Positions 8,866 to 63,489 are shown, counted from the stretch's first letter. The stretch is 64,000 nucleotides of DNA from an uncultured Coriobacteriales bacterium (GCA_902464015.1 CABQHM010000010.1:345-64344); one strand, 5' to 3'. Program-made: numbers and translations. Notes: generated from the letters alone by a model not told the origin.

Positions 8866-8985
8866 CGGGATTTTAGAGCATTGGCGTGCCGGCTGCCCCG
8901 CCAATATCCGACGAAAGGGGTGCGGGCAGCGCGCATATGCACCGCCCGCACCCCTCATTAGCTGCTGTCTTACCCAGAGAATGCC

Positions 8986-11196: not shown

Positions 11197-12177
11197 TTAG
11201 CTCAAGAAGTCCTGGATAATCTGCTCCTCGGCCTCTTCCTCGGTGAGACCCAGGGTCATGAGCTTGATAATCTCCTCGCCGGCAATCTTGCCGATGGCAG
11301 CTTCGTGCACGAGCTGGGCATCCTCGGAGTCAGCCTCGATACCGGGGATGGCGCGGACCTTGGCCTTGCCCATGAGGATGGCGTCGCACTGCACGTGGCC
11401 GCGGCAGTCGGCGGCGCCGATGACCAGCGGGTTGAAGATCTGCTGCGAGTTGTCCTTGGCAACCGAGCGGCTGATGACCTGCACGGAGGAGCCGTCGCCT
11501 TCCATGACGACCTTCATGTTGGAGGTCGCGGTCTGGTCGCCTGTGGTCATGAGCTTCTCGGTGAGGGTGAGCTTGCAGTTGGAGCCCAGGTAGCAGTCGG
11601 TGTCGCGCACGGTGCTCGAGACGCCCTCGATCTGCACGGTGAGCATCTCCATGGTGGAGCCGTCCTCCATGTGGACCTCGGTCACCGGGTTGAGGATGCG
11701 CGCGCCCTCACCCGAGCCCTCGCCGTAGTGCTTCTCGAGGTAGACGACGCGGCTGTTCTTGCCCAGGAAGAAACGGTGGATGCCGTCGTGCTGGGAGTCC
11801 TCGCAGCCGTCGTTGTGCACGCCGCAGCCAGCGACGATGTACACGTCGGCACCCTCGCCGATGAAGAAGTCGTTGTACACCTTGTCGGTGAGGCCGCTCT
11901 CGGTGAGCACCACGGGGATGTGGAGCTGCTCGCCCTGCGTGCCAGGGGCGACGTTGATATCGATGCCCGGCAGGTCCTCCTTCGTCGTGATGACGATGTT
12001 CTCGGAGTTCTGACGCGCCGCAAGGTGGCCGTCCTTGCGAATGTTGATGGCGCCCGTGGTCTCGCCGGCCTTCATGTCGGCGATAATCTGAAGCATGTCG
12101 GAGGTGATGGAGTCGATCTCGCTCGCATCAAGGGCGCCCGCCTGGGCGGCCGTGGCCGTGTTCTGCTCTTCGCTCAT
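11197..12177 (-). CDS. SufB/SufD-family (UPF0051) Fe-S assembly-like protein
   Basis: 326 aa. The beta-helix-like C-terminal region (DAILMGKAKVRAIPGIEADSEDAQLVHEAAIGKI) is typical of SufBD. The start lies 2 nt after the upstream ABC ATPase stop. Confidence 0.75.
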   Translation of the reverse strand: MSEEQNTATAAQAGALDASEIDSITSDMLQIIADMKAGETTGAINIRKDGHLAARQNSENIVITTKEDLPGIDINVAPGTQGEQLHIPVVLTESGLTDKVYNDFFIGEGADVYIVAGCGVHNDGCEDSQHDGIHRFFLGKNSRVVYLEKHYGEGSGEGARILNPVTEVHMEDGSTMEMLTVQIEGVSSTVRDTDCYLGSNCKLTLTEKLMTTGDQTATSNMKVVMEGDGSSVQVISRSVAKDNSQQIFNPLVIGAADCRGHVQCDAILMGKAKVRAIPGIEADSEDAQLVHEAAIGKIAGEEIIKLMTLGLTEEEAEEQIIQDFLS

Positions 12178-12179
12178 CT

Positions 12180-12974
12180 CTAATCCTCCGGATTCAGGGA
12201 CCACTGGCCCAGCTCGGTGTCAACAGTACCCAGGCCGCACGAGACGTTGGCGGCATGGCGACGAATCATGAGGGTGGGGAACATCTCCTCGCGCGTGCCC
12301 TGGCGGTCGACGCGGCCGTCCTTGATGACCACGATGTTGTCGGCGATGTCCATGATGCGCTCCTGGTGCGAGATGATGACCAGGGCGTGGTCGGGCTGGT
12401 CGGCATGGAACTTCTGGAAGGTGCCGATAAGCCTGTCGAAGCTCCACAGGTCGATGCCGGCCTCGGGCTCGTCGAAGATGGCCAGGCGCGGGTTGCGCGC
12501 GAGCACCGTGGCAATCTCGATGCGCTTGAGCTCGCCACCGGAGAGGCTCTTATCCACGTCGCGCATAAGGTAGTTGCTCGAGCACAGGCCCACGGCGCTC
12601 AGATACTCATTGCACTCCTGGGCCGAGATCTTCTTGCCCGAGGCGAGCTTGAGAAGCTTGCGTACCTTCATGCCCTTGAAGCGGGCCGGCGCCTGGAAAC
12701 CGTAGCCGATGCCCATGCGAGCGCGCTCGTCGATGGTAGCTGCGGTGATGTCCTTGCCCTCAAAGACAATGCTACCCGACGTGGGCTTCTCGATGCCCAT
12801 GATGAGGCGTGCGAGCGTGGACTTGCCGCCGCCGTTGGGGCCGGTGATGACCGTGATCCTGCCGGCTTCGATGTTCAGCGACAGGTCATCGATGATGCGC
12901 CTGCCGGGAACGGGCTTTCCTGCGGCGTCGACGCCCGCCGGTGCCTCAAACGCGATGTTCTCGAGTGTGAGCAT
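12180..12974 (-). CDS. SufC-like ABC ATPase
   Basis: Walker A GPNGGGKST, signature LSGGELKR, Walker B AIFDEPEAGID. Translationally coupled to the SufBD-like gene. Confidence 0.85.
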   Translation of the reverse strand: MLTLENIAFEAPAGVDAAGKPVPGRRIIDDLSLNIEAGRITVITGPNGGGKSTLARLIMGIEKPTSGSIVFEGKDITAATIDERARMGIGYGFQAPARFKGMKVRKLLKLASGKKISAQECNEYLSAVGLCSSNYLMRDVDKSLSGGELKRIEIATVLARNPRLAIFDEPEAGIDLWSFDRLIGTFQKFHADQPDHALVIISHQERIMDIADNIVVIKDGRVDRQGTREEMFPTLMIRRHAANVSCGLGTVDTELGQWSLNPED

Positions 12975-18545: not shown

Positions 18546-20201
18546 TTAGGCCTCAGGGCGATCGATGACCTCTCGCTCGATATATTCGATAAGCTCCTGC
18601 TTGGAATGGACGTCAAGCTTTACGTAAATGCGCTTGATATGCGCCCACGCGGTGTTTTGAGTGATGCCGAGATCGGCGGCAATGGCGTTTGCGCTCCAGC
18701 CGCGGGCAAGCTGCACGAGAACCTGAGACTCGCGCGCGGTAAGGCCATGCTCGATTGCCCACTCCTCCACGCGAGCGCCCACGCGGCCGCGCACCTCCTG
18801 CTGCTGCTCGAAATCCTGCTCGCCGGCATCTGCAACCGTCACCGCGCCCTCCGGCTGCGCCGCCCCATCAGCGGCGACCGACTCGCCGCTCGCCCCAGGC
18901 GAAACGACCGCGGCCGCACCCTTGTCGCGGCGGCGCAGCAAGACAGCCGGCACCATCGCGAGTAGATATATGCACACAAGGATGAGAATGGTGGCATACG
19001 AGGCGGCAGCTCGCGCCTCGAGTCCGTTGAGCGCCATGCCCAGTGCAAGTCCCACCACAAGCGACAGCTGCGTGCCCACCTGGTACACACCCATGAGCGC
19101 CACGGACGGCACCGACACGCGGCGAGCCGTCTCCACGAGGAACAACACGAACGCCATGCCTACCAGGTCGTAGCACACCACCATGACCATGCCGGCATAG
19201 TGGCCGAACGCCCCCGGAATAAACGGCAGGGTGGAGAGCGCCACAAGCATGAACGGGAACAGCACCCGATACACAGTGGACGTCTCGGGCACGCGGCGCG
19301 AAAGCAGGACCACCGCAGCAAGCAGCACAGCGGCCAAAACAAGCGCCTCAGCCATGGGAACAGCGCCCACCACGGGCTCGAACGTGCTGCCAATAACCGA
19401 GGTATGCAGCAAGCCCACCACGGCCGTCAACACAAATATGCAGAGAAACGAGCTGAAGTAGCCGTGCAACGTCTTTTTTAGCAGGGAAAGCACCTCGCGC
19501 ATCCCGCCGGAAGCAGCACCTCGCCCACCAGCGGCCGAGACATCGCTGCCGGCCACGGCGACAGCTCCCCCATCCTCACGCCCCGCGTCCACCTCCGCGC
19601 TTATCTCACGCACAAGGTACCAATGTACAGCCCCCGAGAGCGCAAGTGCGCCAAACGCCGCCGCAAACAGCGCCCACCCGTCTACGTACGAGAGCGCAAA
19701 ATACCCCGCCGCCTGCATGAGAAAGCCGCAGACAAGGCCGCGCACGGCAACGCGCACGTCGGGTTCGAACACGAACGGCTCGAACCAAGCAAGCGTCATG
19801 ACCGCCGAGCCCACCGCATATATCAGCCCGCACACCAGCGAACCCACGCCGGGATCGAGCGAGGAAAGCAATCCCGACGCGCCAGCGACATACCCCGCGA
19901 GCATGATGACTGCCGAGCACACAAACGAGGCAGGCGGGACATACCCGCCTACAAACGAAAACGGCCGGCGCATATCGTGGGAACCCCCGTGCGCAAACCC
20001 GGCCAGCACGAAAGCGACAAGCACCAGCGTGGCGAAGGCACCAACAATATTGGTAATAAGCGAGAAGGATGTCTGTGCCACAAAACCGTGGCTTGTACCC
20101 GCCTCGGCTCCAAACGCCGTGATGTAGGCGTTGGACGTCACTGCGCGTGCAAGGCCGTAGCCCGCTGCAAGCAGCACCGTTGTGCGCACGCTTTTCGACA
20201 C
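18546..20201 (-). CDS. Membrane-anchored LuxR/GerE-family regulator
   Basis: 551 aa, GTG start. Polytopic hydrophobic N-terminal region. C-terminal LTARESQVLVQLARGWSANAIAADLGITQNTAWAHIKRIYVKLDVHSKQEL. Confidence 0.8.
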   Translation of the reverse strand: MSKSVRTTVLLAAGYGLARAVTSNAYITAFGAEAGTSHGFVAQTSFSLITNIVGAFATLVLVAFVLAGFAHGGSHDMRRPFSFVGGYVPPASFVCSAVIMLAGYVAGASGLLSSLDPGVGSLVCGLIYAVGSAVMTLAWFEPFVFEPDVRVAVRGLVCGFLMQAAGYFALSYVDGWALFAAAFGALALSGAVHWYLVREISAEVDAGREDGGAVAVAGSDVSAAGGRGAASGGMREVLSLLKKTLHGYFSSFLCIFVLTAVVGLLHTSVIGSTFEPVVGAVPMAEALVLAAVLLAAVVLLSRRVPETSTVYRVLFPFMLVALSTLPFIPGAFGHYAGMVMVVCYDLVGMAFVLFLVETARRVSVPSVALMGVYQVGTQLSLVVGLALGMALNGLEARAAASYATILILVCIYLLAMVPAVLLRRRDKGAAAVVSPGASGESVAADGAAQPEGAVTVADAGEQDFEQQQEVRGRVGARVEEWAIEHGLTARESQVLVQLARGWSANAIAADLGITQNTAWAHIKRIYVKLDVHSKQELIEYIEREVIDRPEA

Positions 20202-24060: not shown

Positions 24061-27000
24061 ATGAACGCCTCTCAAACCACACGCCGGATGCTCGCATCCG
24101 CAGGAGCCGGCGCCATCATCGCGGCCGGAGCACTCGTGGCAGGTATCGCCACCCAACCCTATCCCGCCCTCGCAGAGGACGCAACCTATGACACCGTCGC
24201 CAGCGACGCGTCGTACTCCGACGTAGCCGCCGACGATGACAGCGCATCGGCGGGCGACACAGCCGCCGACGACGCCCAGCAGGCCAACCAGAGCACTGAC
24301 GCGGGCGCGGGCGCACAGGACGCTCCGAAGTTCTCGGCCGCATCCGGCGCCCCCACGGCCACCGCGAGCAAGCCGTGCCTTGCGTTGAGCGTACCCGGCT
24401 CCTTTGACACCACGCAGGCCGAGGCGCTTCTTGGCCGCATCAATGAAATTCGCACCGAGGCCGCCGCAGAAGGCCTCGTAGACTACGAGAGCGGCGTTGC
24501 CGTGACGGGCCAGCCCCTCACCTGGAGCACCGGCCTGGAGCAGCTAGCGCAGGTGCGCGCGGCAGAGGCCTCGTACAGCTTCTCGCACACCCGCCCCGAC
24601 GGCAGCGGCACCGTGCTTGACACCAACGGGCCCCTCGTTGCCGGCGCAAATCCCACCGTTCTGGCCGAGAACCTCGCCCAGGCATCCGACACCGCTTCGG
24701 CTCTTGAACTCTGGTACGCCGAGAAGGACGCTTACGAGCGCTATCTGAACGGCGACACGAGCGTTTCTGAAGGCGACTTCGGCCACTATGCGGCGCTTAT
24801 CAGCGACGACTATACCTACGTTGGACTCGGGTCATTCATTGCCGCCGACGGAGGCACCTACCTGGCCAGCGAGTTCTCCAACGCCGCCAGCGCCTCCGCT
24901 GCCGTGCAGCCCGACGGCGAGTGCGTCGCTCAGATCAACGCCGAGACAGCAGGGCTTACGGCGGGCATCGCCACGCCCCAAGATTGGGACGGCTCCCTCA
25001 CGGCTGGGCAGATGCTCCAGCTGGACCTCAACCTCACGAGCACCCAAGGCGGCACCTACGCTGCGGCGACACAGCTTACCTGGACAAGCAGCGACGAGTC
25101 GGTCGCCACGGTCGACGGCAACGGCCTCGTGAGCACCGTGGGCAGCAGCACGGCCACCATCAGCGTAAGCGCCGCGGCCGATGGGCAGGCCCTCGCCTCG
25201 ATCGACCTTACAGTCGCAGCCCAGCAGGTCGGCGTGCCGAGCGTTGCCGGCATGACGCTTGATGACGCCCGCGACGCGCTTGAGGCGGCTGGCCTGGTGG
25301 TCGGAGACACCATCACCGGGGATGAGGCCTCCGACCCCTCAATGAACGGTGTCGTGTACGACCAGGACCCCGCGGCCAATACCCTGGTGGACGCAGGCAC
25401 GCAGGTAAACCTAACCGCCTACGCCGACTACGTGGCCCCCTGGGCCACGAGCTGCGAGGCAGCCGAGCCCGTGGAGACCGAAGCGGGCGTGGCACCCGAG
25501 CTGCCTGCGACCGTCACCGTCTATTGGAGCAAGGGCGACCCCACGCAGGAGCCCGTGACCTGGGATGATATTGACCCCGCGCTTTATGCCGACGGCGACA
25601 GCTTCCAGGTGAGCGGCACCGTGGGCGACACGGGGCTCACCACGACGGTGGGCGTCACCGTCAAGGCAAAGCCCGCCCCCACAATCGCCTCGCTCGAAGA
25701 CGTCAACGTCACCACACCTTCCGGCACCGCGCCCGAGCTGCCCGAAACAGTGAACGCCACTATGTCCGACGACACCACGACCACGATGAACGTGAGCTGG
25801 AACGCCGTGGACGCCTCGCAGTACAGCTCTCGCGAGGGCGGCACGTTCGACGTGACGGGCACGGTCGAGGGCGCGGCGGGCTATGCCGTGGCACACGTCA
25901 CCGTGACCCCCGCGACCATCACGGCGCTTGAGGACCCCGCGCCCATCACCACCTTCGTCGGCCACGAGCCCACACTCCCTGCGACCGTGAAGGCGACCTG
26001 GAGCAACGGCGACGTCACCGACGAACTGGTTGAGTGGCAGCCCCTGCTCGGCCTCACCCAGGACGGCAAGGGCCCCTGGGACTTCGCCGGTGACGTCGTG
26101 CTCACGGGCACGGTGGAGGGCACCGACAAGACCGCGTCGCTCAAGGTGAGCGTCGTGCAACCCAAGGCGCAGAGCGTAGGCGAGCTCGTCGGCGTGTCGA
26201 CCAAGGCAGGCACGGCGCCCAAGCTGCCCCAAACTGTGCAAGTGACCTGGGAGGATGGCAGTACCACGCAGGAGAGCATCACGTGGGATGCGATCGATCC
26301 CGCCAGCTATGAGAAAGCAGGGATCTTCACCGTCACCGGCACGGTGCCTTCGGCCGACAACGCCCAGGTCGGCGTACAGGTGACCGTGACTGCCGCCGAT
26401 CTCACCATTACCAGCGTCGCCGCCATCGCCGACGTCACCACGCCCTCCGGCACTGCCCCGACACTTCCCAGCCAGGTCGAGGTCACGTGGAGCGACGGCA
26501 GCACGGGCACGGGCACCATTGCCTGGGACGCCGTGGACGAGGCCTCTTACAAGGTGCGCGCAGGCGGAGAGTTCAGCGTGCACGGCACCGTGAGCGCCAC
26601 GCAAGGTTCCGGCGAGGGCGCCGCAGACGGCAAGGCAGACGTCAGCGTGCGCGTCATCGTGAGCGCCGCCACCGCAACGGCCGTCGAGCAGCCTGCCGGC
26701 GTGTCCACGACCGCGAATACCGCCCCTACCCTGCCCGCAACCGCGCGCGTCACCTGGAGCAACGGCGACGTCACCGACGAGGCTGTGACCTGGGATGCCA
26801 TCAATCCCTCGTTCTACGAGAACGCCGGCACGTTCACCGCGAGCGGCAAGGTGAGCTCCACCGGCCAAGGTGTGAGCTGCAAGGTCACCGTGAAGGCCGC
26901 GGCGGCGACCGCAACAGCCGTCTCCGCGAAGGCAGTGGACATTACCACCACGGCAGGCGTTGCCCCCCAGCTCCCCGCCAGCGTCGAGGTCACCTGGAGC

Positions 27001-27492
27001 AACGGCACAACCACAAAGGAAGTCGTCAGTTGGAACGCGGTGTCTGGCAACGCCTATGCGCAGGCCGGGTCGTTTGACGTCACGGGCACCATCGCCACAG
27101 CGACCGGCATCCAGGCAACGGCCCATGTGACCGTCACCGCGCTCACGGCAGTGCGTGCGGTGCTTGACAACAGCGTCATCTCGACCACCGAAGGGGTCGC
27201 GCCCACCCTTCCCGCCACTGCACGGGTGACCTGGAGCAACGGCAAGACTAGCACCGAGACCATCAGCTGGAACGCCGTTGACCCCGCCCTCTACGCCAAG
27301 GCAGGCACCTTCGACGTGAAGGGTACGGCCGCAGGCGTCGCGGTGACTGCGCACGTGAACGTCACCGGTGCCGAGGTCGCGAAGACCGCCGACCCCTCGC
27401 CGAGTCTCGCCCTCGCCGCCATGCTCGCCAGCGGCGGCGTCCTAGCCGTGGCGGCCGGCGTCGTCCTCAAGCTGCGCGCCAAGCGCGGGTAA
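24061..27492 (+). CDS. Large secreted/cell-surface protein: signal peptide, CAP/SCP domain, Big_2, PASTA, 8 Big_4-like repeats, C-terminal TM anchor
   Basis: Signal MNASQTTRRMLASAGAGAIIAAGALVAGIATQPYPALA. CAP-like GHYAALISDDYTYVGLGSF. Big_2-like LTWTSSDESVATVDGNGLV. PASTA-like VPSVAGMTLDDARDALEAAGLVVGD...VYDQDPAANTLVDAGTQVNLT. Eight repeats of the form AP.LP.TV.VTWS.G....E.V.W.AVD...Y. The tail is hydrophobic and ends LKLRAKRG. Confidence 0.85.
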   Translation: MNASQTTRRMLASAGAGAIIAAGALVAGIATQPYPALAEDATYDTVASDASYSDVAADDDSASAGDTAADDAQQANQSTDAGAGAQDAPKFSAASGAPTATASKPCLALSVPGSFDTTQAEALLGRINEIRTEAAAEGLVDYESGVAVTGQPLTWSTGLEQLAQVRAAEASYSFSHTRPDGSGTVLDTNGPLVAGANPTVLAENLAQASDTASALELWYAEKDAYERYLNGDTSVSEGDFGHYAALISDDYTYVGLGSFIAADGGTYLASEFSNAASASAAVQPDGECVAQINAETAGLTAGIATPQDWDGSLTAGQMLQLDLNLTSTQGGTYAAATQLTWTSSDESVATVDGNGLVSTVGSSTATISVSAAADGQALASIDLTVAAQQVGVPSVAGMTLDDARDALEAAGLVVGDTITGDEASDPSMNGVVYDQDPAANTLVDAGTQVNLTAYADYVAPWATSCEAAEPVETEAGVAPELPATVTVYWSKGDPTQEPVTWDDIDPALYADGDSFQVSGTVGDTGLTTTVGVTVKAKPAPTIASLEDVNVTTPSGTAPELPETVNATMSDDTTTTMNVSWNAVDASQYSSREGGTFDVTGTVEGAAGYAVAHVTVTPATITALEDPAPITTFVGHEPTLPATVKATWSNGDVTDELVEWQPLLGLTQDGKGPWDFAGDVVLTGTVEGTDKTASLKVSVVQPKAQSVGELVGVSTKAGTAPKLPQTVQVTWEDGSTTQESITWDAIDPASYEKAGIFTVTGTVPSADNAQVGVQVTVTAADLTITSVAAIADVTTPSGTAPTLPSQVEVTWSDGSTGTGTIAWDAVDEASYKVRAGGEFSVHGTVSATQGSGEGAADGKADVSVRVIVSAATATAVEQPAGVSTTANTAPTLPATARVTWSNGDVTDEAVTWDAINPSFYENAGTFTASGKVSSTGQGVSCKVTVKAAAATATAVSAKAVDITTTAGVAPQLPASVEVTWSNGTTTKEVVSWNAVSGNAYAQAGSFDVTGTIATATGIQATAHVTVTALTAVRAVLDNSVISTTEGVAPTLPATARVTWSNGKTSTETISWNAVDPALYAKAGTFDVKGTAAGVAVTAHVNVTGAEVAKTADPSPSLALAAMLASGGVLAVAAGVVLKLRAKRG
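25440..27370 (+). repeat. Intragenic tandem array of about 8 Ig-like (Big_4-type) repeat units
   Basis: Recurring protein unit of about 75-80 aa containing G.AP.LP..V.VTWS.G.....V.W.AV....Y...G.F.V.GT. Confidence 0.8.
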
Positions 27493-27596: not shown

Positions 27597-29201
27597 CTAG
27601 AGTGCCACGGTCTTCGTCGCCGCAAGGTCAACGAGCTGGGCGCGGGTGTTGACGCCCGCCTTCTCGTAGATGTGGGCCGTGTGCGTCTTCACCGTGTTGC
27701 GCGAGATGCCGAGCTTCTCGGCGATGGCGTCGGCGCTCTGGTGCTGCAACAGATACGGCAGGACCTCGGTCTCGCGCGGGGTGAGCGTGCCGAGCTCGGC
27801 GGCGATGGCATCGGCCTGCACCTGCGCAATGCGCGCCATGTCGGCGGGATTGCGCACGATGACGAACTGGTCGCGGGCACGCTGCTGCACGGTCACACCC
27901 AGGCTGAGCAGGGCACCGTAGAGCAGCGACACGGCAACGAGCACGATGGAAGTCGTGCCCAGACCCACCGTGCTCATGAGCACGCCGCCACCCAGGATGC
28001 CCACAAGCAGGGTAAACGAGCAGATGCAGACGACCCAGGCAGGGTTCTTGAGGCCCTCTTCACCCCGCCGGGCAAGCCCCAACAGCTCCACCATCGCACA
28101 CATAGCGAGGGCACTCGTGAGGCTGTCAGTCGCCTTACCGGCGATATGAGCGAGCGTCTGACCCACATCAGAGGGCATCGTTGTGGTGAGGATGAACACG
28201 AGGGCCGAGGTGCCCAACAATATCGGGAGCACCACATACGGCGCGTCGGGGTTGGCGCGCATCGAGAGAAAAAGCAGCGCGCACGCAAGCAGAGTGCCGC
28301 CCACGCCGGTCACAACCTGGCGATACACGTACTCTGCCTGGGCAAGACCGTCGTTGGAAAAGCCAATGAGACCCATGTAGAGCCCCAAGCCCAAAGAGCA
28401 GCACGCGACCTCAGTGAGATGGCTGCGCAACTGAGAAGGCCGCGCCGCGGGCGACTGCGCAGAAGAGGCCGTGCCCGCCGTCACACCAGCGACCACACCA
28501 GACTGCGAGCCGCACACAGCAAGGGCGCGCGCCTCGCACACGACGCCAAGAATCGGCAGGATGCAAACGAGCGCCGCGCACACATCAGCATTGAGCGCCC
28601 CAAAAAGCAGCTTGATGGCAGCACATGCTCCCAAACTTGCGCACGCCAATCCCAAAACCGTGGAACTGCGCGGCTCAACGGGCGCGTTGGCCACAAGTCG
28701 CGGCACCAAAAACCCGAAAGCCAGACCGCCGATGAGGCCACCCACCACCGTGAGCACCAGGCTCGAAGAGCCCAGCTTGACAAGGGCTGGCCCCACAAAA
28801 CAGCCCAGGGCACATGCGAGATTCAATATGTCAGCGTGAAGCGCTCCGCCAAAGGCGGGACGGATGCAACACAGCCCACCTGCCGCAGCTCCCTTACAAG
28901 AGGTGGCATCGCCCCTCGAAGCGCCATTTTCGCAGGCAACGTCTGCAGCAGAACGCCTACCGACAAAGGCAACCGCAAAGGCGGCGAGCGCCGTGCCCGC
29001 AAGGGCAGCAAGCCAACCCGCATCCCCACGCGGGTGGTTCAGGATGGAAATCGGCAGCGTGTAGACAGGACCGGGCGTCATGCGATACGCAAAGTCAAAC
29101 CAAAGAATGATGAGGGCCGCCTCCAGGCAGACCCAAAAAACAGGGAGCAACGGCAAGGTTTTGACCCGAGCCCACCCCTGTGTCTTATCTTTTTCCGCCA
29201 T
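27597..29201 (-). CDS. Membrane-anchored LuxR/GerE-family regulator
   Basis: Polytopic N-terminal region. C-terminal LTPRETEVLPYLLQHQSADAIAEKLGISRNTVKTHTAHIYEKAGVNTRAQL. Start taken at MAEKDKTQ (29201). Confidence 0.8.
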   Translation of the reverse strand: MAEKDKTQGWARVKTLPLLPVFWVCLEAALIILWFDFAYRMTPGPVYTLPISILNHPRGDAGWLAALAGTALAAFAVAFVGRRSAADVACENGASRGDATSCKGAAAGGLCCIRPAFGGALHADILNLACALGCFVGPALVKLGSSSLVLTVVGGLIGGLAFGFLVPRLVANAPVEPRSSTVLGLACASLGACAAIKLLFGALNADVCAALVCILPILGVVCEARALAVCGSQSGVVAGVTAGTASSAQSPAARPSQLRSHLTEVACCSLGLGLYMGLIGFSNDGLAQAEYVYRQVVTGVGGTLLACALLFLSMRANPDAPYVVLPILLGTSALVFILTTTMPSDVGQTLAHIAGKATDSLTSALAMCAMVELLGLARRGEEGLKNPAWVVCICSFTLLVGILGGGVLMSTVGLGTTSIVLVAVSLLYGALLSLGVTVQQRARDQFVIVRNPADMARIAQVQADAIAAELGTLTPRETEVLPYLLQHQSADAIAEKLGISRNTVKTHTAHIYEKAGVNTRAQLVDLAATKTVAL

Positions 29202-29296
29202 GGCGTTTCCCCCGTCGACGTCTGGGCACGTTTCGCACCGCACATCAGCACGCGGGGATGATACCACCGAAGTGAGAGAATCGCAGGTGGGACGCA

Positions 29297-29785
29297 TTAT
29301 GCCTCGGGGGAAACGTCAGGCGCCTCCCCAGCCTTCGCGGCATCGGCCTCACAGCGGGCCAGCGTGTAGGCGTAGTCCTCGCGGAAGCGGTTGAGCTCGT
29401 CTTCCAAGACAAGGGCATCGGCCTCAGACAGACGCGCGCGCGATGCCTCGGGGACACTGGCGAAGGGGCTGTGCTCGAGGTCGCGCTCAAAGCGCGCCTT
29501 CTCACCACGCAGGGCCAGGCGCTTCTCGTTTACCAGCTGCTCATAGAGCTTGGGATCGATGGCGTCGCGGTCGAACGTGCGAGACTCGAGCTGTTCGAGG
29601 TCGCCCTCGAGGTCGTCGACGCATGAGTACTTGGCAAGCACCTGCCCTGCAGCGCGATGCCTCTCCAACTTGGCCTGAATCTCCTGCATGCGCGGCATGC
29701 CGGCAAGCAGCGACTGCAGATGCCGCTCGTTAGCCGATTCCGCCTGGTATGCACCCGTCAGCTGGTCATTTGTCTCGTTACCCAT
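29297..29785 (-). CDS. Hypothetical acidic helical protein (about 163 aa), no recognised domain
   Basis: ORF between the flavoreductase and LuxR genes on the same strand. Start at MGNETNDQ. Glu/Arg/Leu/Ala-rich, no hydrophobic segment. Confidence 0.5.
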   Translation of the reverse strand: MGNETNDQLTGAYQAESANERHLQSLLAGMPRMQEIQAKLERHRAAGQVLAKYSCVDDLEGDLEQLESRTFDRDAIDPKLYEQLVNEKRLALRGEKARFERDLEHSPFASVPEASRARLSEADALVLEDELNRFREDYAYTLARCEADAAKAGEAPDVSPEA

Positions 29786-34429: not shown

Positions 34430-36118
34430 CTACTCACGCACGATGCGCAGGATATCTTCGCGTGAGGTGACGTCGAGTTTGCGATAGATGTTGTGGATGT
34501 GCGTGCGCACCGTGTTGGGCGAAATGACCAGCTCTTCGCCGATGTACACGCCGTTGTGGCCGTGAGCGAGAAAACTCAGGACCTCGCGCTCGCGAGCGGT
34601 GAGGCCGTAGGTGCGCGCGAGCTCATCACAGCGAGCTTCAAGGCTCGCCTCACCGAGCAAGACATCGCTCGCATCGGGGGCAGGGGCATCCTCCAAGGTA
34701 GACACCGTCCTGAAGGCGACGGGGCCCCCGCCTCGACCATACCCGAGGTCTCCCGCACCCACGAACGCCTCATGGTCGGCCCGCAGGCCACGCCACAGGG
34801 CGTATACCACCATCCCGGCAGCATACAAGCCGCTCGTCACCACGATAAGCGTGCGCACCTGGGCTGGATCGGCGCCGATGTTGGCACACGCGACCTGGGT
34901 GAAGACGGTCACAAGGCAAAAGAACGCGACGCCCACGCATACCACGAGGTCGCTGGGGTATTCGGCGGCATGGGCCATGCCCACCAAGGTCGACAGCGTC
35001 AGAAGCGCTGCCACCGTGTACAGCACGAGCACAAAGATGAGTTCAAACGGCGACCCGCCCAAAAGCGACTCGCTGAAGTAGTTGAACACAAGCATCGCAA
35101 CCGAAAGCACGGGAATAAGACCGCGATACACCGCCCTCAGAAGCGGGGTAGACGGCGGAAGCAACATGCAGGCGAGCAGCAGCAGGGCAACAACTACCTG
35201 GATGACGACGTACTCGGAGTAATTCTCGAAGAAAAGTTCCCCGCGCACCGCCATGAGCATGGCGAATAGAGCAAGCCCCACCCCGGGGACGAAGGTCATC
35301 TCTAGAAAACTACGCAGGCGACCTGGAACGGCAGATGCGCCACGGACCCGCTCGGACGACATCGGGGGTTTGGAGGCAAGGGCGTTCTGGACCTGGTCGT
35401 CATACACATCCCGGGCCTGGTCGTCATGCACGCCATCGGTCTGGCCGCCATGCATCCCTTGGGCCTGGTCGTTATGCCTGTCCCGCGCCTTTTTTCCATA
35501 CTCCCCTGCCTCGACGGTAGGCGCGCCCGACTTCGCCCATGCATCGCCAAACGGCGCAAAGACAAACGGCAGAGCCGCGCAGGCAAGCGTACAGAGCACG
35601 AACAGCGCCACGGCGGCTGCCTCACCCACATGAAGCTGGACCCAACCCACAAGCGCCGCGAGCACAGCAGAAGCCGCGATGACACCGGTGGCCTGACGCA
35701 GGTTATAGCGAGCCAGGATGCGCCCCCAAGCAAGCAGCTCCCCCAGGCATCCAGCACCAACGCAGATGCCCACCGGCAAAAATGTCCACTCGGGCCACGC
35801 GCCGCCCAGGGCCATCGCGCAAAAGGACGCGTTGCCCGCCACAAACGCGAACGCAAAGAGCACACGCACGATCACATGGCTCAAAACCCTTCTCAGCCCC
35901 AGGCCCACCACGAGCGTCCCCGCAACGCCAGCAAGAACCCCCGAGCGAAGGGCATATCCCAGAATGCCAACGAAATCAGGCAGGTTCACAAAGCGTTGAA
36001 AGGGCATTGCCGCCGCCGAATAGAGGAGCAGCGTCGCGAGCAGGCAGGCAAAACCCGCCACCGAAACGGCGTCGACCCAACCCATGCGACCCATTGTCGT
36101 TTTGTTCCTCGTGATCAC
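34430..36118 (-). CDS. Membrane-anchored LuxR/GerE-family regulator
   Basis: 562 aa, polytopic. C-terminal LTAREREVLSFLAHGHNGVYIGEELVISPNTVRTHIHNIYRKLDVTSREDI. GTG start at 36118, or the ATG 8 or 11 codons downstream. Confidence 0.8.
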   Translation of the reverse strand: MITRNKTTMGRMGWVDAVSVAGFACLLATLLLYSAAAMPFQRFVNLPDFVGILGYALRSGVLAGVAGTLVVGLGLRRVLSHVIVRVLFAFAFVAGNASFCAMALGGAWPEWTFLPVGICVGAGCLGELLAWGRILARYNLRQATGVIAASAVLAALVGWVQLHVGEAAAVALFVLCTLACAALPFVFAPFGDAWAKSGAPTVEAGEYGKKARDRHNDQAQGMHGGQTDGVHDDQARDVYDDQVQNALASKPPMSSERVRGASAVPGRLRSFLEMTFVPGVGLALFAMLMAVRGELFFENYSEYVVIQVVVALLLLACMLLPPSTPLLRAVYRGLIPVLSVAMLVFNYFSESLLGGSPFELIFVLVLYTVAALLTLSTLVGMAHAAEYPSDLVVCVGVAFFCLVTVFTQVACANIGADPAQVRTLIVVTSGLYAAGMVVYALWRGLRADHEAFVGAGDLGYGRGGGPVAFRTVSTLEDAPAPDASDVLLGEASLEARCDELARTYGLTAREREVLSFLAHGHNGVYIGEELVISPNTVRTHIHNIYRKLDVTSREDILRIVRE

Positions 36119-36328: not shown

Positions 36329-38290
36329 ATGAGCAAGACCGTTTCGCGTCGCGCCTTCCTGACCAGCGCTGCAACGGCCACTGCGGGCATCGCCGCAGCA
36401 TCCGCCTTTGCAACCTCCGCCTTTGCTGCCGGTGGCCCCGGCGGTGGCCCTGGTGGCCCTGGCGGCCCCGCCAAGGAGGTTGTCTACGCTTCCGCTGAGA
36501 CCACCGACGACGGTCGCGTCAAGGGCTACTGCGGCCCTGGCGACTGGCTGGGCACCAAGCCCGAGATCGCCGAGGACCAGATCACCCAGACCTACGACGT
36601 CGACGTCGTCGTGCTGGGCGGCGGCCACGCCGGCCTCATGGCCACGCTGGGCGCCGTGGACGAGGGCTGCACCGTAGCCACCGTCGAGCAGCAGCCTTGG
36701 AGCGCCTTCGTTGACCTCGACGGCACCGGCGCTAACATGGGCGGCTGGTACGGCGAGGACATCGGCCATGTCAACTCGCAGTTCCTCATCGACCGCGGCT
36801 TTGGTCCCTACAACACCGGCGAGATTGCCGCCGAGTTCTGCAAGCGCGCCGCGGGCCGCGTGAACCCCGACATCATCAAGGCGTTCGTGCAGAATTCCGG
36901 CGCCATGTTCGACCGCTACAAGGAGGTCTACGACTCCTACGAGGAGGAGCGCAAGGCCAACGACTCCAACGTGCATCTCACCGGCACGCTCGTGGTGATT
37001 GACGGCGAGCCCGTGGCCGACGAGGGCGATTTCGACATGTCCAACATGTTCGATTACCCGCTGTGCAACACGCAGGCCGCATGGTCGGGCGCCAACGTGG
37101 AGTACCCCATCGAGTGCGGCGGCTACAAGACCTGGCCTTGCAACGCCCAGTTCTACGGCTACCACGGCAACGACATCGAGTTCGTGCACAAGTACATCAA
37201 GCAGTACACCGAGGAGAACGGCGCCACCTGGTACTTCGAGCACACCGGTGTCGAGCTCGTGCAGAACGAGGCCGGCGACGTGACGGGCCTTATCGCCACC
37301 GATGCCGACGGCAACTATGTGCAGTTCAACGCCGCCAAGGGCGTCATCCTGTGCGCCGGCGACTACATCGGCGACCCCAAGATGTGCTGGGCCCTGCTGA
37401 ACGAGGGCATGGAGTGGGGCGAGCGCTCCGGTGCCACCTCCGAGGACTGGGCGAGCGCCGGCTCGCGCTCCGGTGCCGGCCACAAGATGGGCATCTGGGC
37501 TGGCGGCATGATCGAGCCGACCCCCCGTGGCTGGATGGCCATCGGCGGCGGCGCAAGCGGCCCCTGGGGCACCTGCCCGCTGCTCACGCTCAACTCCGAG
37601 GGCAAGCGTTTCTGCAACGAGGGCGCCATCGCCCAGCTGCAGGCCGTCTGCCTGCGCCAGCCGGCCGGTCTGTCCTGCTACGTGACCGACGCCAACTGGA
37701 AGCAGACCGTGGGTTCGGCTCCCCTCGATCACGGCGCGCCCAACTTCGGCATGGACGACTACATGGTCCAGCTCGAGGCAGGCATGAACGCCGTTGAGGT
37801 GGGCAACCCCGAGGGCGGCTTCGTCGTCGGCGCCAACCTCGCCGAGCGCAAGATGATGGGCGGCACGGTGTACGCTGCCAACACGCTCGAGGAGCTGGCC
37901 GACATGCTCGGCTACGAAGGCGACGCCAAGCAGAACTTCCTCGACAGCATCGCCCATTACAATGAGCTGTGCGCCTCCGAGGACGGCGACACCGACTACG
38001 GCAAGGATAAGGCCTACATGGTGCCGATCGACACGCCTCCCTTCTACGGCGGCACGAGCAGCACCTCTCACTCCACCAGCCCCATGATGGTCACGATGAG
38101 CGGCCTTATGACCGACGCTGCCCAGAACGTCCTCAAGACCGACTGGACGAAGATTAAGGGCCTGTACGCCGCTGGCAACTGCCTGGGCGGCCGCTACGGC
38201 TTCGGCTACTCCACGCCCTTCGCCGGCAACTCGGTGGGCATGGCAATGACGCACGGCTGGCTCGCCGGTCACACCGTCGGCCAGCTGTAA
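36329..38290 (+). CDS. Tat-signal FAD-dependent reductase (FAD_binding_2 family) with Gly/Pro-rich linker
   Basis: MSKTVSRRAFLTSAATATAGIAAASAFATSAFA followed by AGGPGGGPGGPGGP. VVVLGGGHAGL. C-terminal GLYAAGNCLGG. GAAAGGA RBS. Confidence 0.9.
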   Translation: MSKTVSRRAFLTSAATATAGIAAASAFATSAFAAGGPGGGPGGPGGPAKEVVYASAETTDDGRVKGYCGPGDWLGTKPEIAEDQITQTYDVDVVVLGGGHAGLMATLGAVDEGCTVATVEQQPWSAFVDLDGTGANMGGWYGEDIGHVNSQFLIDRGFGPYNTGEIAAEFCKRAAGRVNPDIIKAFVQNSGAMFDRYKEVYDSYEEERKANDSNVHLTGTLVVIDGEPVADEGDFDMSNMFDYPLCNTQAAWSGANVEYPIECGGYKTWPCNAQFYGYHGNDIEFVHKYIKQYTEENGATWYFEHTGVELVQNEAGDVTGLIATDADGNYVQFNAAKGVILCAGDYIGDPKMCWALLNEGMEWGERSGATSEDWASAGSRSGAGHKMGIWAGGMIEPTPRGWMAIGGGASGPWGTCPLLTLNSEGKRFCNEGAIAQLQAVCLRQPAGLSCYVTDANWKQTVGSAPLDHGAPNFGMDDYMVQLEAGMNAVEVGNPEGGFVVGANLAERKMMGGTVYAANTLEELADMLGYEGDAKQNFLDSIAHYNELCASEDGDTDYGKDKAYMVPIDTPPFYGGTSSTSHSTSPMMVTMSGLMTDAAQNVLKTDWTKIKGLYAAGNCLGGRYGFGYSTPFAGNSVGMAMTHGWLAGHTVGQL

Positions 38291-38330
38291 AGGAAGACAC
38301 GGAACCTCGTCCGCTGTTGAATGATCCATG

Positions 38331-38372
38331 GGCCCCGCCCGCGCGGTTTTGGCGGGCGGGGCCTTTCTTCTT
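38331..38372 (+). terminator. Rho-independent terminator (or attenuator) between the flavoreductase and HemN-like genes
   Basis: ggccccgcccgc-N9-gcgggcggggcc followed by tttcttctt. Confidence 0.75.
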
Positions 38373-38401
38373 GATTGCCTCGTTTCGATTGGACGCACAC
38401 C

Positions 38402-39475
38402 ATGGATGCATGCATTGCACCTGCTACCGACAAACTTGTCGTCGACGTGGCGTTTCCCTTCACGCTGTCCACGCCCGCGTACGGTCCCAGTCGCCCGTTC
38501 ATGGGCAACCATGCCGCGAAGGCCGCCTATGTGGACGCGCTGGAGACCGAGCTCGCCTCCCTCGACGACGAAGTGCGGACGCGGCCTGTGTCTGCGGTAC
38601 GTCTCTCGGGCGGAGCAAGCATCATGAGCGCCGACAAGGTATGCCACCTGGTGCGACAGATTAAAAAAACGCTCACCATGGTACCGGGAGCGGAAATTTC
38701 CATCGACGTGGAGCCGCTGACCGTGTGTACGCCCAGCCTTACCGACTGGACGAGTTGCGGCATCACGCGCGTCAACCTTGCGGCCTTGTCCTGCGATGAC
38801 ACCGAACTTAGCGCACTTGGCGCTCACCACGCCCGCGAGCAGCTTCAAAATGCGCTGCTCTTCCTTGAAAAGTTTCACATGGCTAATGTGAACTTCGAGG
38901 TGCTATACGGCGCCCCGGGGCAGACAGAGGCGAGCTGGAAGCGCACGCTTCTCACCCTGGCTGGCGTCGACGCACCCCACATCAGCACGAGACCCCTGGT
39001 AGACGCCGCAAGCGACGCCGCCTGGACCGAGCAGGCCAGCGAGGCAAGCACGACGCAAGAGGGTGTCCCCGCTCCTGCCGCTCCCCTGCCCTCACCCGAA
39101 ACCCGACGTGTCTTCTATGAGCAGGCACAACGTATTCTCAGCGAGCGAGGCTATACCGAGGTTGCACCTGGCGACTTTGCCAAGTCGGGACTCGCTCCGG
39201 CATCGGGCGTGTTTGGGCCGCTCATGCGCGCAGGCGCCGACGTGCTTGGCTTGGGCGCAGGAGCCCGCAGCCGCCTTGACGGTTTCCTGTACGAAAACGC
39301 CTGCGACTACGACCTATATGTGGCCAAGTCCGCCGACTTCGAGGCGATTGTGCGCAACCCCCTGCGCGAGAACGAGCAATCTCTCCGCGCACGCGTCTGT
39401 CCGCCCGTCGAAAACCTCACCGCAGCCCAACGGTTTGAGTTCCTCGAAACCATGGGGGCATCGCTTGCGCGCTAA
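38402..39475 (+). CDS. HemN/HemW-like protein lacking the radical-SAM CxxxCxxC motif (paralog of 7673-8683)
   Basis: The cluster position reads VDVAFPFTLSTPAYG with no Cys. Family-like blocks VLYGAPGQTEASWKRTLLTLAGVDAPHIS and GYTEVAPGDFAKSG (HemN_C-like). Confidence 0.65.
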   Translation: MDACIAPATDKLVVDVAFPFTLSTPAYGPSRPFMGNHAAKAAYVDALETELASLDDEVRTRPVSAVRLSGGASIMSADKVCHLVRQIKKTLTMVPGAEISIDVEPLTVCTPSLTDWTSCGITRVNLAALSCDDTELSALGAHHAREQLQNALLFLEKFHMANVNFEVLYGAPGQTEASWKRTLLTLAGVDAPHISTRPLVDAASDAAWTEQASEASTTQEGVPAPAAPLPSPETRRVFYEQAQRILSERGYTEVAPGDFAKSGLAPASGVFGPLMRAGADVLGLGAGARSRLDGFLYENACDYDLYVAKSADFEAIVRNPLRENEQSLRARVCPPVENLTAAQRFEFLETMGASLAR

Positions 39476-60551: not shown

Positions 60552-61760
60552 CTACTCAGCGAGAGCCTTGCCGAGCCTATAGCCAGCATTAATGCAGTTC
60601 ATGCCCAGATTGTGGCCGCAAACGGCAAAGTTGTAGCAGTTGCCGTACGAGTCGCCAACCATGATGCCGATGTTGTAGAGGCCCTCGATGGGATTGTCGT
60701 TGGCGTCGCAAACCTGCCATTTCTCGTTGGTGTTCAAGCCACCGGTGACACACAGGAAGTTGGCGGGGCTCATGCTGAGCTTGCAGCCGTAGAAGGGGCC
60801 TTCCTTGATGGGTGCCATGAGAGAGGCGTCCTTGTGGAAGTCGGTGTCGCAGCCGGCCTCGCACAGCTCGTTGTAATGGTCGATAGAGGCGAGCGCCGCC
60901 TCAGCGTCGAGGTCGTCGAGCTGGGCGATGACCTCCTCGAGCATGTCTCCCTTGACAAAGGTGCCGCTCTCGACGTTGGAGTCCCACTGAGCCAGGTAAG
61001 CCTCGCACGACAGGGGGTCCTTGCCCTCGCCGGCGACGATGGTGGCGCCGAAGGTCTCCCACTGGGGGAACCAGTGGGCATAGGCGGTGTCCCAGATGCC
61101 GTAGCGGGTCATGTCGGGCTGCATCATCATGGCATATGTTCCATACGAGAAGATGACGTCCTCGTTAGAGTAGCGCTGGCCGTTCTTGTTGAGCAGCAGA
61201 CCGGAGAAGTCGGCGATGGACTGACGGTAAGGCATGGGTCCAACAGCATCGATCATGGGGGCGTTGGGGATGCTCTTCTGCCACGCGGCGCCGACCCAAA
61301 GGCCCATCTTCTGGCCGTCGCCGCCACCAAGGCCACCGAACTGGAAGGCCGCGTCATAGTCTATCTCGTTGTACTGAAGCAGCGGGGCGACCCAGTCGCA
61401 GTACTTGGCCATCATGTCCTGGTTGGCAGAAAAGTCGCCCGTAGCCATGACGACGGCCTTGCGGCCGACGTACTTGACGTAGTTGCCATCCGGATCGGTG
61501 GCAACTACCGCGCTCACACGGCCTGTATTGCCGTCGTCGCGGACAAGGTAACGGGCGATGGTTTTGTAATGGATGGTGCCTCCCTGCTCGAGAATCTTCG
61601 ACTCCAGGGCGTACATGACGTAGTTCTCGCCCAAACGAGCCCCCGATTCGACGCCGTCGCAAGTCTCAACCCAGTTGTGAGAGCCGGGCTCGGCGGTGAA
61701 GGTGCCGTCAGTGTCGGTGTAACCGATCTCCATGGTTGTGGTGTAGCCCTGGCCTTCCAT
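60552..61760 (-). pseudogene. 5'-truncated FAD_binding_2 flavoreductase (lacks the Tat signal and FAD dinucleotide fold)
   Basis: The 402-aa ORF aligns with the C-terminal two thirds of the paralogs (VVMATGDFSANQDMMAKY, GQKMGLWVGAAW, DTDFHKD, GPFYG, GLYNIGIMVGD). No RR signal or GxGxxG is present. Similarity ends near 61770-61790. Confidence 0.7.
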
Positions 61761-62034: not shown

Positions 62035-63489
62035 TCACCCCTGCACGAGGACGTCGAGCTCCTCCTTGCTGTGGACGCCGAGTTTCTTGTATATATGCTG
62101 CATGTGGGCTTTGACCGTGCCGGGCGCGATGCCCAGCTTGTTACCCAGGGCGCGGGGCGTGTCGCCCCGCGCAACAAGCAGCAGTATCTCCCTCTGACGC
62201 CCCGACAGGCCGTGCTCGCGGGCGAGCGTGTCCACGGTCAGCTCGAGCCGCGCGTCCTCCGCCAGACTCGTCCCCGCACGCGTGAGGACGATGCGCCAGC
62301 TCGAGTTGAGCGTGGGCTCCGACACGATGATGAACGTCGCGAACAGGATGCAGATGATGACCGCGCCCACGACGACGAGCGACGGCAGGGCGTTGAAGAG
62401 GAGCGTCCCGGCCCCCAGGAACGCGATGTGGACAACGTTGAGCAGGCCGAACAGCCATGCGGCGCTGATGCCGTAGCGCCGCGACAGGTTGCACAGTACC
62501 ACCGAGATGTATAGGGACACCGACGTGTAGCTCGCCCGCACGAAGACGGTGACGAGGCCCTCGTTGCCGTCCCGGACGAGGAGCAGGGCAAGGAAGCCGG
62601 CGATTGCCGCGGGCAGGATGGTGCGGTAGACCAGGGCGAAGTCGAAGAACCTCGATGCGAACAGGATGGACGCGCAGACGACAAGCGCCGGGAGGACCAT
62701 GCCCAGGCGCATGAAGAGGTCGTCCTGGTAATGGAGCAGCCACGTGCCGCACCCGTAGGCGAACGCGTACAGGGCCACCAGGCTCATCGGCTTCCAGGGG
62801 AACGATGCCGCGCCGTCCCCCGCGCGCGTCACAAGACCGAGGGACGCGCAGCGCCTTTGCGCGGCGTCGAGCATGGCCATGCCGAGCAGCGGGAAAACGA
62901 GCGTCGCCGCGACCAGGTAACCGCCGGAATATCCGGAAAGCGCCGCGATCGCCACCTCGCGGGCGATCCAGGAGCTTGCACAGCAAAACGCCACCTCGAC
63001 CGGGTTGAGGGCGGCACAGACCTCCCACCAGCATAGGATTGCAAGCGAAGAACCGGCGCCCGCCAAGGCAAGGCCGAGCAGGCGCCCGAGCTGGGCTGTG
63101 TCAGACGGCAAAATCGGCATGTCTCCCGGCCCGAGCGGGGCGGCGGGCAGCAGTCCGCCGAAGGCGGCGAGTGCGTTGCCTGCATACATGAGGGCGGCGG
63201 CGCCTGCGAGAACGCCGCGGCGGGCCCCGAGCGGCCCGGCCCCCCGCGCGAGCGCGACGACAAGGAGGAACACGGGCACGGAGCCCAGGTCGACGTAGAG
63301 CGTGACCCGCCCGAAGGCCGTGGAGGGATCGCTTGACGAGGCGGCCTGCACCATGGCCTGCAGCGCCGCGACCCATGCCCGCAAGACGCCCGGGCCCAGA
63401 AAAGCAAGCGACACCGCGGGCACCCGCTCCGCCAAAAGTCCCCTCAACGTCCCAAACACGGATGTCCCCCTCCCTCGTCTGCGTCCCAT
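62035..63489 (-). CDS. Membrane-anchored LuxR/GerE-family regulator
   Basis: 484 aa, polytopic. C-terminal LSGRQREILLLVARGDTPRALGNKLGIAPGTVKAHMQHIYKKLGVHSKEEL. Confidence 0.8.
   Translation of the reverse strand: MGRRRGRGTSVFGTLRGLLAERVPAVSLAFLGPGVLRAWVAALQAMVQAASSSDPSTAFGRVTLYVDLGSVPVFLLVVALARGAGPLGARRGVLAGAAALMYAGNALAAFGGLLPAAPLGPGDMPILPSDTAQLGRLLGLALAGAGSSLAILCWWEVCAALNPVEVAFCCASSWIAREVAIAALSGYSGGYLVAATLVFPLLGMAMLDAAQRRCASLGLVTRAGDGAASFPWKPMSLVALYAFAYGCGTWLLHYQDDLFMRLGMVLPALVVCASILFASRFFDFALVYRTILPAAIAGFLALLLVRDGNEGLVTVFVRASYTSVSLYISVVLCNLSRRYGISAAWLFGLLNVVHIAFLGAGTLLFNALPSLVVVGAVIICILFATFIIVSEPTLNSSWRIVLTRAGTSLAEDARLELTVDTLAREHGLSGRQREILLLVARGDTPRALGNKLGIAPGTVKAHMQHIYKKLGVHSKEELDVLVQG

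Follow-up and report, generated by a model that had tools for sequence, protein, structure and literature searches.

Chaperones such as TorD, DmsD, NarJ and NapD are small proteins, each encoded in the operon of one redox enzyme exported by the twin-arginine translocation (Tat) system, to which they are specific; their production is low, and their evolution is faster than that of the client. Among the relatives of HemN, an enzyme of the radical S-adenosylmethionine (SAM) type, ChuW/HutW is an anaerobic heme-degrading radical-SAM methyltransferase whose gene is paired with that of ChuY, a small cytoplasmic NAD(P)H reductase and not a Tat-exported enzyme of the FAD_binding_2 family. PsgB (TIGR04419, "HemN-related non-iron pseudo-SAM protein") is already curated as a HemN relative without the iron-binding Cys residues, so that HemN-like proteins devoid of a cluster are not unheard of; we take it to belong to a peptide-modification system rather than to a flavoreductase. 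HemW (YggW/RSAD1-type, TIGR00539), a family member that is not a coproporphyrinogen III oxidase, is thought to be a carrier or chaperone for respiratory enzymes, needs no cluster for ligand binding, and has been proposed to contact heme through an HNxxYW motif (PMC10114718), while the segments GPRYTSYPTA and RNFQGYTT are listed as required for the activity of HemN/CgdH, the oxygen-independent coproporphyrinogen III dehydrogenase (PMC10320005). Here we describe, in a stretch of 64,000 nucleotides from an uncultured Coriobacteriales bacterium (GCA_902464015.1, CABQHM010000010.1:345-64344; hereafter the window), two genes for Tat-signal flavoreductases, red1 (36329-38290, + strand) and red2 (8986-10812, - strand), each with a gene for a HemN-fold protein lacking the radical-SAM Cys triad downstream of it, hem1 (38402-39475, + strand) and hem2 (7673-8683, - strand). 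We are highly confident that the reductase and the HemN-like gene constitute a real, conserved two-gene module, whose partner protein is not a radical-SAM enzyme.

HemN-like partners and their clade

Both copies of the module have the same layout, and hem1 (357 residues, a cytoplasmic protein) and hem2 (336 residues, containing VELRMPFSPEAGGNG) are paralogues with 27% identity (E 1e-11). A sequence-only reading of this DNA had assigned both proteins to the HemN family, with the Cys residues lost and the fold retained; the open reading frames (ORFs) and the strings it quoted from both loci are in place, and the assignment is borne out by several lines of comparison. In hem1, which reads VDVAFPFTLSTPAYG, SGGASIM, VLYGAPGQTEASW and GYTEVAPGDFAKSG, the segment FPFTLSTPAYG stands where HemN relatives have PFCxxxCxYC, and SGG-AS stands in place of GGGTPS, whereas hem2 reads MPFSPEAGGNG at the PFCxxxCxxC position. 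A profile of the hem1 family finds its best sequence match in Escherichia coli HemN (1olt, E 1.4e-19), with C62, C66 and C69 of the enzyme facing T21, P25 and G28. The AlphaFold2 (AF2) models of hem1 and hem2 are confident (predicted local distance difference test score, pLDDT, 88.8 and 90.1, respectively; predicted template modeling score, pTM, 0.87), and in Foldseek the best match of both in the PDB is again 1olt by a wide margin (template modeling score, TMq, 0.73; E 8e-19 and 1e-19), with BioB, HydE, MiaB and other radical-SAM enzymes as further matches, indicating that the partial TIM-barrel core fold is present.

The likeness to the named families is nevertheless limited. With HemN/CgdH, the partners share the Gln of the PGQT motif (Q217), but, besides the replaced Cys triad, the N-terminal GPRYTSYPTA segment is absent, RNFQGYTT is not conserved, and the scores against TIGR00538 are 51.9 bits (hem1) and 14 bits (hem2) versus a cut-off of 325. 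With HemW, whose model is among the best named matches (E 4.7e-20), they share the HemN-type partial TIM barrel and a part of the C-terminal domain, but reach only 72 bits (hem1) and 18.4 bits (hem2) versus a cut-off of 205.4, lack CxxxCxxC, HNxxYW, the GxQS Gln, the LGRxH His and the ExNP Asn, and have a degenerate GGGTPS; furthermore, HemW is a single housekeeping copy, whereas the partner gene is tied to one Tat flavoreductase and duplicated with it. ChuW/HutW, although the top NCBIfam match for hem2 (E 1.3e-10) and likewise a HemN-like protein encoded beside a reductase, is matched with 66.7 bits by hem1 and 40.7 bits by hem2 versus a cut-off of 400 (TIGR04107); the partners have no cluster, and heme-uptake genes were not noticed at any of the loci read. 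The match to PsgB is at chance level for hem2 (E 0.03, 13.8 bits versus a cut-off of 300) and absent for hem1. Altogether, the matches of hem1 to the STM4012, HemW, HutW and HemN models (E 3.5e-21 to 5e-14) and those of hem2 amount to a small fraction of the curated cut-offs for every NCBIfam model, and a Pfam scan reported no domain in hem1, in hem2 or in the hem2 homologues P0121-P0148.

Judged from these sequences, hem1 and hem2 can no longer bind a [4Fe-4S] cluster, and several of the SAM-contacting residues are gone: the GxQS Gln is changed to Leu, the equivalents of E145 and D209 are variable across the clade, and the PGQT Gln alone is kept. CxxxCxxC is absent from all of the approximately 110 hem1-family and 28 hem2-family homologue clusters (43-96% identity), some of which keep one Cys (FPCTL), and ordinary radical-SAM HemN-like proteins enter the homologue lists of hem1 and hem2 only at E ~1e-11 and weaker. 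Nor does an upstream extension carry the motif, in agreement with what had been seen before: the hem1 ORF can be extended only to a TTG at 38375, and the possible 59-residue extension of hem2, which is mostly absent from the called starts of most hem2 homologues, contains no CxxxCxxC. Hem1 has no signal peptide, its first β-strand beginning at residue 12 of the AF2 model.

The earlier description of the partners as HemW-derived has to be abandoned. When 146 representatives were grouped by the unweighted pair group method with arithmetic mean on p-distances, with HNxxYW used together with the Cys triad for sorting HemW from non-HemW, 50 canonical HemW proteins (CxxxCxxC, GGGTPS, HNxxYW) split cleanly from the remaining 96, the clade members being short HemN-like proteins of about 290-420 residues. 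HNxxYW occurs in 50/50 of the canonical HemW representatives, and none of the 96 non-HemW representatives, nor hem1 or hem2, has it; among the 96, CxxxCxxC is kept in 27 and gone in 69. At least seven subgroups, that of hem2 among them, contain members with the Cys triad alongside members without it. Even where the triad is retained, residues that never vary in HemW are lost (the GxQS Gln, the LGRxH His, the ExNP Asn and the E145 equivalent), while Y43, E50, E98, R123, Q174, N299 and Y306 are conserved in every class. By this grouping, hem1 and hem2 belong to a large unnamed clade that is distinct from HemN, HemW, ChuW/HutW and PsgB, and are not degenerate HemW proteins. Because related members still carry the Cys triad, the Fe-S cluster is concluded to have been lost many times within the clade, the independence of these losses being an argument from grouping and not a rooted parsimony count; and since purifying selection persists in spite of the losses, the conserved function is presumably not radical chemistry. 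Cluster loss is common in the module but does not define it: the red2-type partners P0155 and P0158 still have CxxxCxxC, though they are paired with reductases 75-80% identical to red2, and an intact CxxxCxxC with a Pfam Radical_SAM match is found in P0174, P0219, P0155 and P0158, all of them in the same type of module.

Pairing with one group of flavoreductases

Distant partners were found by a profile search of 1.84 billion representatives, which gave roughly 22,700 hits, after which the neighboring genes were read, and a locus search for the hem1 family gave at least nine loci, from which L009 (Rhodothermales, 24% identity, a true radical-SAM gene) was left out. A reductase of the red1/red2 type adjoins the partner in 12/12 relatives whose context was read (25-95% identity; Coriobacteriia/Coriobacteriales and Clostridia assemblies), and on contigs of Coriobacteriales metagenome-assembled genomes (MAGs) a hem1 orthologue (52-95% identity) directly follows a red1 orthologue (83-98% identity) at 7/7 listed loci with upstream DNA. 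The pairing is matched by clade, in that red1 orthologues 57-98% identical adjoin every hem1-type gene sampled and red2 orthologues 75-88% identical adjoin hem2-type genes. Thus, the neighboring reductase is identical to red1 by 85% for the hem1-type partners P0094 and P0105, 78% for P0165, 73% for P0156, 69% for P0161 and 57% for P0211, the last four partners being themselves only 30-35% identical to hem1; and it is identical to red2 by 83% for the hem2-type partner P0141 and 78% for P0146, the hem2 orthologues being located behind red2 orthologues of 78-88% identity. The hem2-like genes of P0155 and P0158 lie behind reductases 75% and 80% identical to red2, respectively, the hem2-type gene of P0219 is convergent with a reductase 43% identical to red2, and the P0174 gene precedes a reductase of a third type. 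The partner gene is on the same strand immediately downstream of the reductase gene in 9/12 families, other orders (divergent, convergent or reversed) being found in L020, L030 and L027.

Reductase and partner also diverge together: the identity matrices of the 12 pairs are correlated with r = 0.747, a value reached by 0/5000 Mantel permutations. In the window, which holds eight FAD_binding_2 paralogues, red1 and red2 have one HemN-like paralogue each and not one common copy, and one co-diverging paralogue per reductase is the pattern predicted by a specific protein-protein relationship. The partner evolves approximately 3 times faster than the reductase (53% versus 85% identity, 33% versus 70%), as is common among assembly factors relative to their clients. 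The module crosses phyla, as follows from the presence of P0156 in a Clostridia MAG and of a SpoIIP gene in L029. In this latter, Firmicutes-type locus (3061-5519), the order is LytTR regulator, reductase, hem-like gene and histidine kinase, and the kinase gene starts within the end of the hem-like gene, the start and stop overlapping, which suggests translational coupling to the sensor.

The view of the sequence-only reading that the duplicated synteny reflects a functional unit thus receives support from every locus that could be read, with all 12 partner families. That reading knew of no described function for such a pair, and our literature search likewise found no paper describing it; apparently undescribed are also how broad the clade is, that its members are linked to Tat flavoreductases, and that the cluster was lost repeatedly. 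In the databases, the partners are named "hypothetical" (NCBI) or "coproporphyrinogen III oxidase-like Fe-S oxidoreductase" (IMG), the latter label being wrong on both counts.

Red1 (653 residues; Pfam FAD_binding_2, E 1.7e-22, above the cut-off) and red2 (608 residues, E 6e-22) score 80.7 and 78.8 bits against PF00890, with a gathering score of 20.4. Behind the twin-arginine motif, SRRAFL in red1 and SRRSFL in red2, come a hydrophobic stretch and an AxA-type site; in red1, the signal peptide (approximately 36329-36427, beginning MSKTVSRRAFL, with AFA as the site) leads directly into the Gly/Pro linker AGGPGGGPGGPGGP (approximately 36428-36469), and in red2 the signal peptide is followed by the Ala/Pro/Gly-rich linker APAGGSDGGAPAGGPEGGAPAGGP. 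Flavocytochrome c3 and urocanate reductase are the closest proteins of solved structure, with E values of only 1e-8 to 1e-13. Neither enzyme has an FMN_bind domain, and red1-type enzymes contain clade-specific insertions with conserved Cys that are not found in the red2 type. The red1 clade is 50-98% identical across Coriobacteriales, MAGs of Clostridia and Lachnospiraceae, Anaerolineales and cultured Raoultibacter, bearing everywhere only the name "FAD-binding protein"; the red1 orthologue of Raoultibacter timonensis (P0353) has 70% identity.

The linker had been put forward as the feature that sets the partnered reductases apart. Among the eight FAD_binding_2 paralogues of the window, a Gly/Pro-rich tract after the signal peptide is indeed confined to red1 and red2, but outside Coriobacteriia it does not track the partner: a lipobox with a Ser/Thr/Ala linker is found in the partnered reductases of the Clostridia-type loci L020 and L022, and in L024 (173-2551) a red1 orthologue (69% identity) has an N-terminal FMN_bind-like domain (DAISGCTLG) and carries the Gly/Pro tract GGPGGPGGGPGGPGG at its C-terminus. 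With these three loci partnered in the absence of the tract after the signal peptide, the linker was dropped as a determinant of pairing. The absence of FMN_bind was dropped as well, since several paralogues in the window have, in the alignment, neither an FMN_bind segment nor a partner, and L024 has both.

Expression signals and the proposed role of the partner

Between red1 and hem1 lies a terminator-like hairpin (38330-38372, + strand), composed of a 13-bp G+C stem, GGGCCCCGCCCGC/GCGGGCGGGGCC, at 38330-38363, followed by TTTCTTCTT to 38372; the corresponding 3' hairpin of red2 (8917-8954, - strand) has the G+C stem GGGGTGCGGGCGGTGC...GCTGCCCGCACCCC followed by TTTCG, about 30 nucleotides (nt) past the red2 stop, and most of the orthologous loci have a G+C hairpin behind the stop codon of the reductase gene. 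Neither hem gene has space for a promoter of its own behind the hairpin in front of it. The gap from the T-tail of the former to the hem1 ATG is only ~30 nt, and no promoter-like site was found in it, so that the earlier suggestion of an attenuator rather than a full terminator appears reasonable. In L017 (5333-6000), a 668-nt AT-rich spacer with the same hairpin, GGTCCGGATCCGCACAGGATCCGG(G/A)CCC, at both ends separates the red2-like and hem2-like genes and has the appearance of DNA inserted into the terminator region between them; the hem2-like gene there is followed by another red2-like gene.

The effective number of codons (ENC) is 29.5 for red1 and 35.0 for red2, and 45.6 for hem1, 44.9 for hem2 and 45.7 for the LuxR-type regulator gene next to red1; the G+C content at third codon positions (GC3) is 0.90 for red1, 0.81 for red2 and 0.72 for both hem1 and hem2; and the Shine-Dalgarno sequence is good in red1 (AAAGGA), strong in red2 (GAGGAGG) and weak in hem1 and hem2. 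From the weak codon bias, the poor Shine-Dalgarno sequence and the hairpin in front, production of the partner is predicted to be a small fraction of that of the reductase, itself predicted to be highly expressed, and this low expression of the partner probably arises by read-through. Hem1 is a working gene, as judged from a ratio of nonsynonymous to synonymous substitution rates (dN/dS) of 0.10-0.33 versus six orthologues. For the same genome pairs (L001-L018), dS is 0.33-0.41 in the reductase gene versus 1.2-1.8 in the adjacent hem gene, that is, 3-5 times lower. Horizontal transfer of the reductase gene alone was considered as the source of its low dS and dropped, the strong codon bias of this gene being the simpler explanation, and recombination at the intergenic hairpin may contribute to the difference.

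The pairing probably identifies the partner as a dedicated helper of the reductase. As the partner has no signal peptide and the reductase bears SRRxFL, the two can meet only in the cytoplasm, unless they are exported jointly. The mechanism that we favor, with a probability of roughly 0.45, is suggested by the gene context: the partner would be a low-abundance, sub-stoichiometric and cluster-independent factor specific to its own reductase, which would meet the enzyme in the cytoplasm before Tat export, hold it in the unfolded or apo state or help cofactor loading, and then hand it to the Tat machinery. This mechanism follows the escort logic of TorD, DmsD and NapD, proteins to which the partner is similar in being cytoplasmic, without a signal peptide, predicted to be low in abundance and faster-evolving than the client, and it also follows HemW, whose heme binding needs no cluster. 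By these analogies, the chaperone idea of the sequence-only reading may be called a fair one. More tentatively, and with less confidence than in the mechanism itself, we speculate that the partners represent an unrecognized maturation or escort class dedicated to respiratory reductases that are Tat-exported and contain only flavin, the radical-SAM scaffold of HemN having been repurposed for it and its cluster being dispensable; such a class would span gut Coriobacteriia and Clostridia, and may extend to Anaerolineae.

Several observations weigh against an escort or assembly factor. The HemN-like fold is unrelated to those of the Tat escort chaperones known so far, and Pfam detects neither a TorD nor a NapD domain; the likeness proposed is one of functional analogy only. 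The clients here contain only flavin, not molybdopterin or metal clusters, and we know of no flavin-only Tat substrate that needs an escort chaperone. FAD_binding_2 genes are dense, with eight in 64 kb, which makes adjacency by itself weak evidence, and the weight of the pairing evidence rests on the clade-matched pairing. The six other Tat flavoreductases of the window have no partner, so that the need for one would be clade-specific, and the reductase alignment revealed no feature common to the partnered and absent from the unpartnered enzymes. The CxxxCxxC-bearing relatives encoded beside reductases 75-80% identical to red2 may be true radical-SAM maturases, in which case the Cys-less forms would have a different or reduced role. 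Lastly, a regulatory role would be just as consistent with the low expression and with the overlap of genes seen at the kinase start in L029.

Such a role, in which the pseudo-enzyme would bind a small molecule (substrate, tetrapyrrole or adenosyl compound) in the cytoplasm and modulate the LuxR-type or LytTR/histidine-kinase regulator of the reductase gene, gains further from the dedicated regulator present at every locus (GerE, or LytTR with HATPase_c_5), from a codon bias of hem1 and hem2 equal to that of the LuxR gene, and from L020, where the hem-like gene is divergent from a regulator-kinase-reductase operon. We consider it unlikely, because the type of regulator switches (GerE, LytTR two-component, LysR) although the partner and the reductase clade diverge together, because the partner's usual place is directly after the reductase gene and not beside the regulator gene, and because the Pfam scan found no DNA-binding or signaling domain in it. 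Equally unlikely in our estimation is a second subunit of the reductase, which would fold with the enzyme inside the cell and leave it as a Tat hitch-hiker, and whose radical-SAM site would be useless without SAM outside the cell and would decay. The prevailing same-strand position immediately downstream, the co-divergence, the lack of an own signal peptide, as in hitch-hiker subunits, and the repeated loss of the cluster, expected for an extracellular protein, all agree with this idea, but the large expression mismatch implied by ENC values of 45 versus 30, the weak Shine-Dalgarno sequence and the hairpin between the genes does not; nor do the about threefold faster evolution of the partner and the deviating gene orders of L020, L030 and L027.

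A HemW-like tetrapyrrole chaperone, binding heme without a cluster and delivering it to a heme protein from which the reductases receive electrons, is less probable still. HemW, STM4012 and HutW are the closest named models, the binding of heme by HemW is reported to be cluster-independent (PMC10114718), and red1 and red2, having no FMN_bind, need an external electron donor; however, the proposed heme motif of HemW is missing from the whole clade, hem1 reaches only 72 of the 205 bits required for HemW, a general heme supplier needs no co-diverging paralogue for each reductase, no cytochrome gene was seen in the modules read, and the L024 reductase has its own FMN_bind and yet a partner. We regard as similarly improbable a partner that is still catalytic, acting on the reductase by post-translational modification or on its substrate or product, the Cys-bearing forms by radical-SAM chemistry and the Cys-less ones by a non-radical reaction or with alternative cluster ligands. 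It could draw on the four relatives with intact CxxxCxxC and Radical_SAM matches in the same module, on the conservation of C81, C109 and C119 within the hem1 family, and on that of Q174, E50, E98, R123 and Y306 in all classes. Against it, the Cys-bearing members have also lost the GxQS Gln, the LGRxH His and the E145 equivalent, the three Cys residues are not conserved beyond the hem1 family, and the reductases with Cys-less and Cys-bearing partners are still 75-80% identical, which argues against an essential radical modification. A non-functional relic of a radical-SAM gene carried along with the reductase, as the lost catalytic motif, the fast evolution and the weak expression signals might suggest, is strongly disfavored and hardly credible in view of unbroken reading frames in more than 130 homologue clusters (25-96% identity), the low dN/dS, the confident AF2 folds and about 20 alignment columns conserved across all subgroups; the sequence-only reading had likewise not taken the genes for relics.

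Surroundings of the module and its significance

Divergent from red1 is the gene of a LuxR/GerE-type regulator (34430-36118, - strand; 562 residues; Pfam GerE, E 6e-15) with an N-terminal half that is hydrophobic by eye; it is the probable regulator of the red1-hem1 unit, and a GerE gene occupies the matching position at the related loci L010 and L018. The window contains at least four large GerE/LuxR regulators (18546-20201, 27597-29297, 34430-36118 and 62035-63489), which are presumed to be membrane-anchored, along with two LysR-type, one LytTR and two GGDEF genes, and is as a whole a dense "respiratory reductase arsenal" as is typical for Eggerthellaceae-like genomes, the nearest genome being the Coriobacteriaceae MAG HRGM_Genome_3264. 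Two genes directly upstream of red2-hem2, on the same strand, encode a SufC-like ABC ATPase (12180-12974, - strand) and a SufBD-core protein (11197-12204, - strand), so that a module whose partner has lost its Fe-S site has genes of Fe-S assembly as neighbors, which may be a coincidence. The FAD_binding_2 ORF at 60552-61760 (- strand, 402 residues), just downstream of the LuxR/GerE gene at 62035-63489 (- strand), matches profile positions 141-405 only, is without a Tat signal or the N-terminal Rossmann part, and is probably a truncated or pseudogenized reductase. The gene at 24061-27492 (+ strand) encodes 1143 residues that include CAP, PASTA and eight Big_4 domains, and its product is presumably located at the cell surface. 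Red1 and hem1 share a reading frame (38402 - 36329 = 2073 = 3 x 691) with three in-frame stops between them, which is probably meaningless.

Gut Coriobacteriia and some Clostridia encode tens to hundreds of Tat-exported flavin and molybdopterin reductases, with which they respire dietary, host and drug molecules (bioRxiv 10.1101/2022.12.26.521950). Most of these gut reductases are uncharacterized, and an accessory gene specific to one widespread superclade offers a practical handle on them: the reductase-partner pair marks a functionally coherent subgroup, and co-expression of the partner may be needed for obtaining an active enzyme. Cluster-less HemN relatives themselves are not new; the module unites a HemN-fold pseudo-enzyme with the probable part of a client-specific accessory of a Tat enzyme. 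If the proposed role is true, the partners would be required for active enzymes of the red1/red2 superclade, and their clade would provide a natural series of transitions from radical-SAM protein to pseudo-enzyme in one functional context. The many losses of the Cys site under purifying selection, in an unchanged gene context, suggest that the scaffold has a conserved, cluster-independent job, which is the same question as that posed by HemW/RSAD1.

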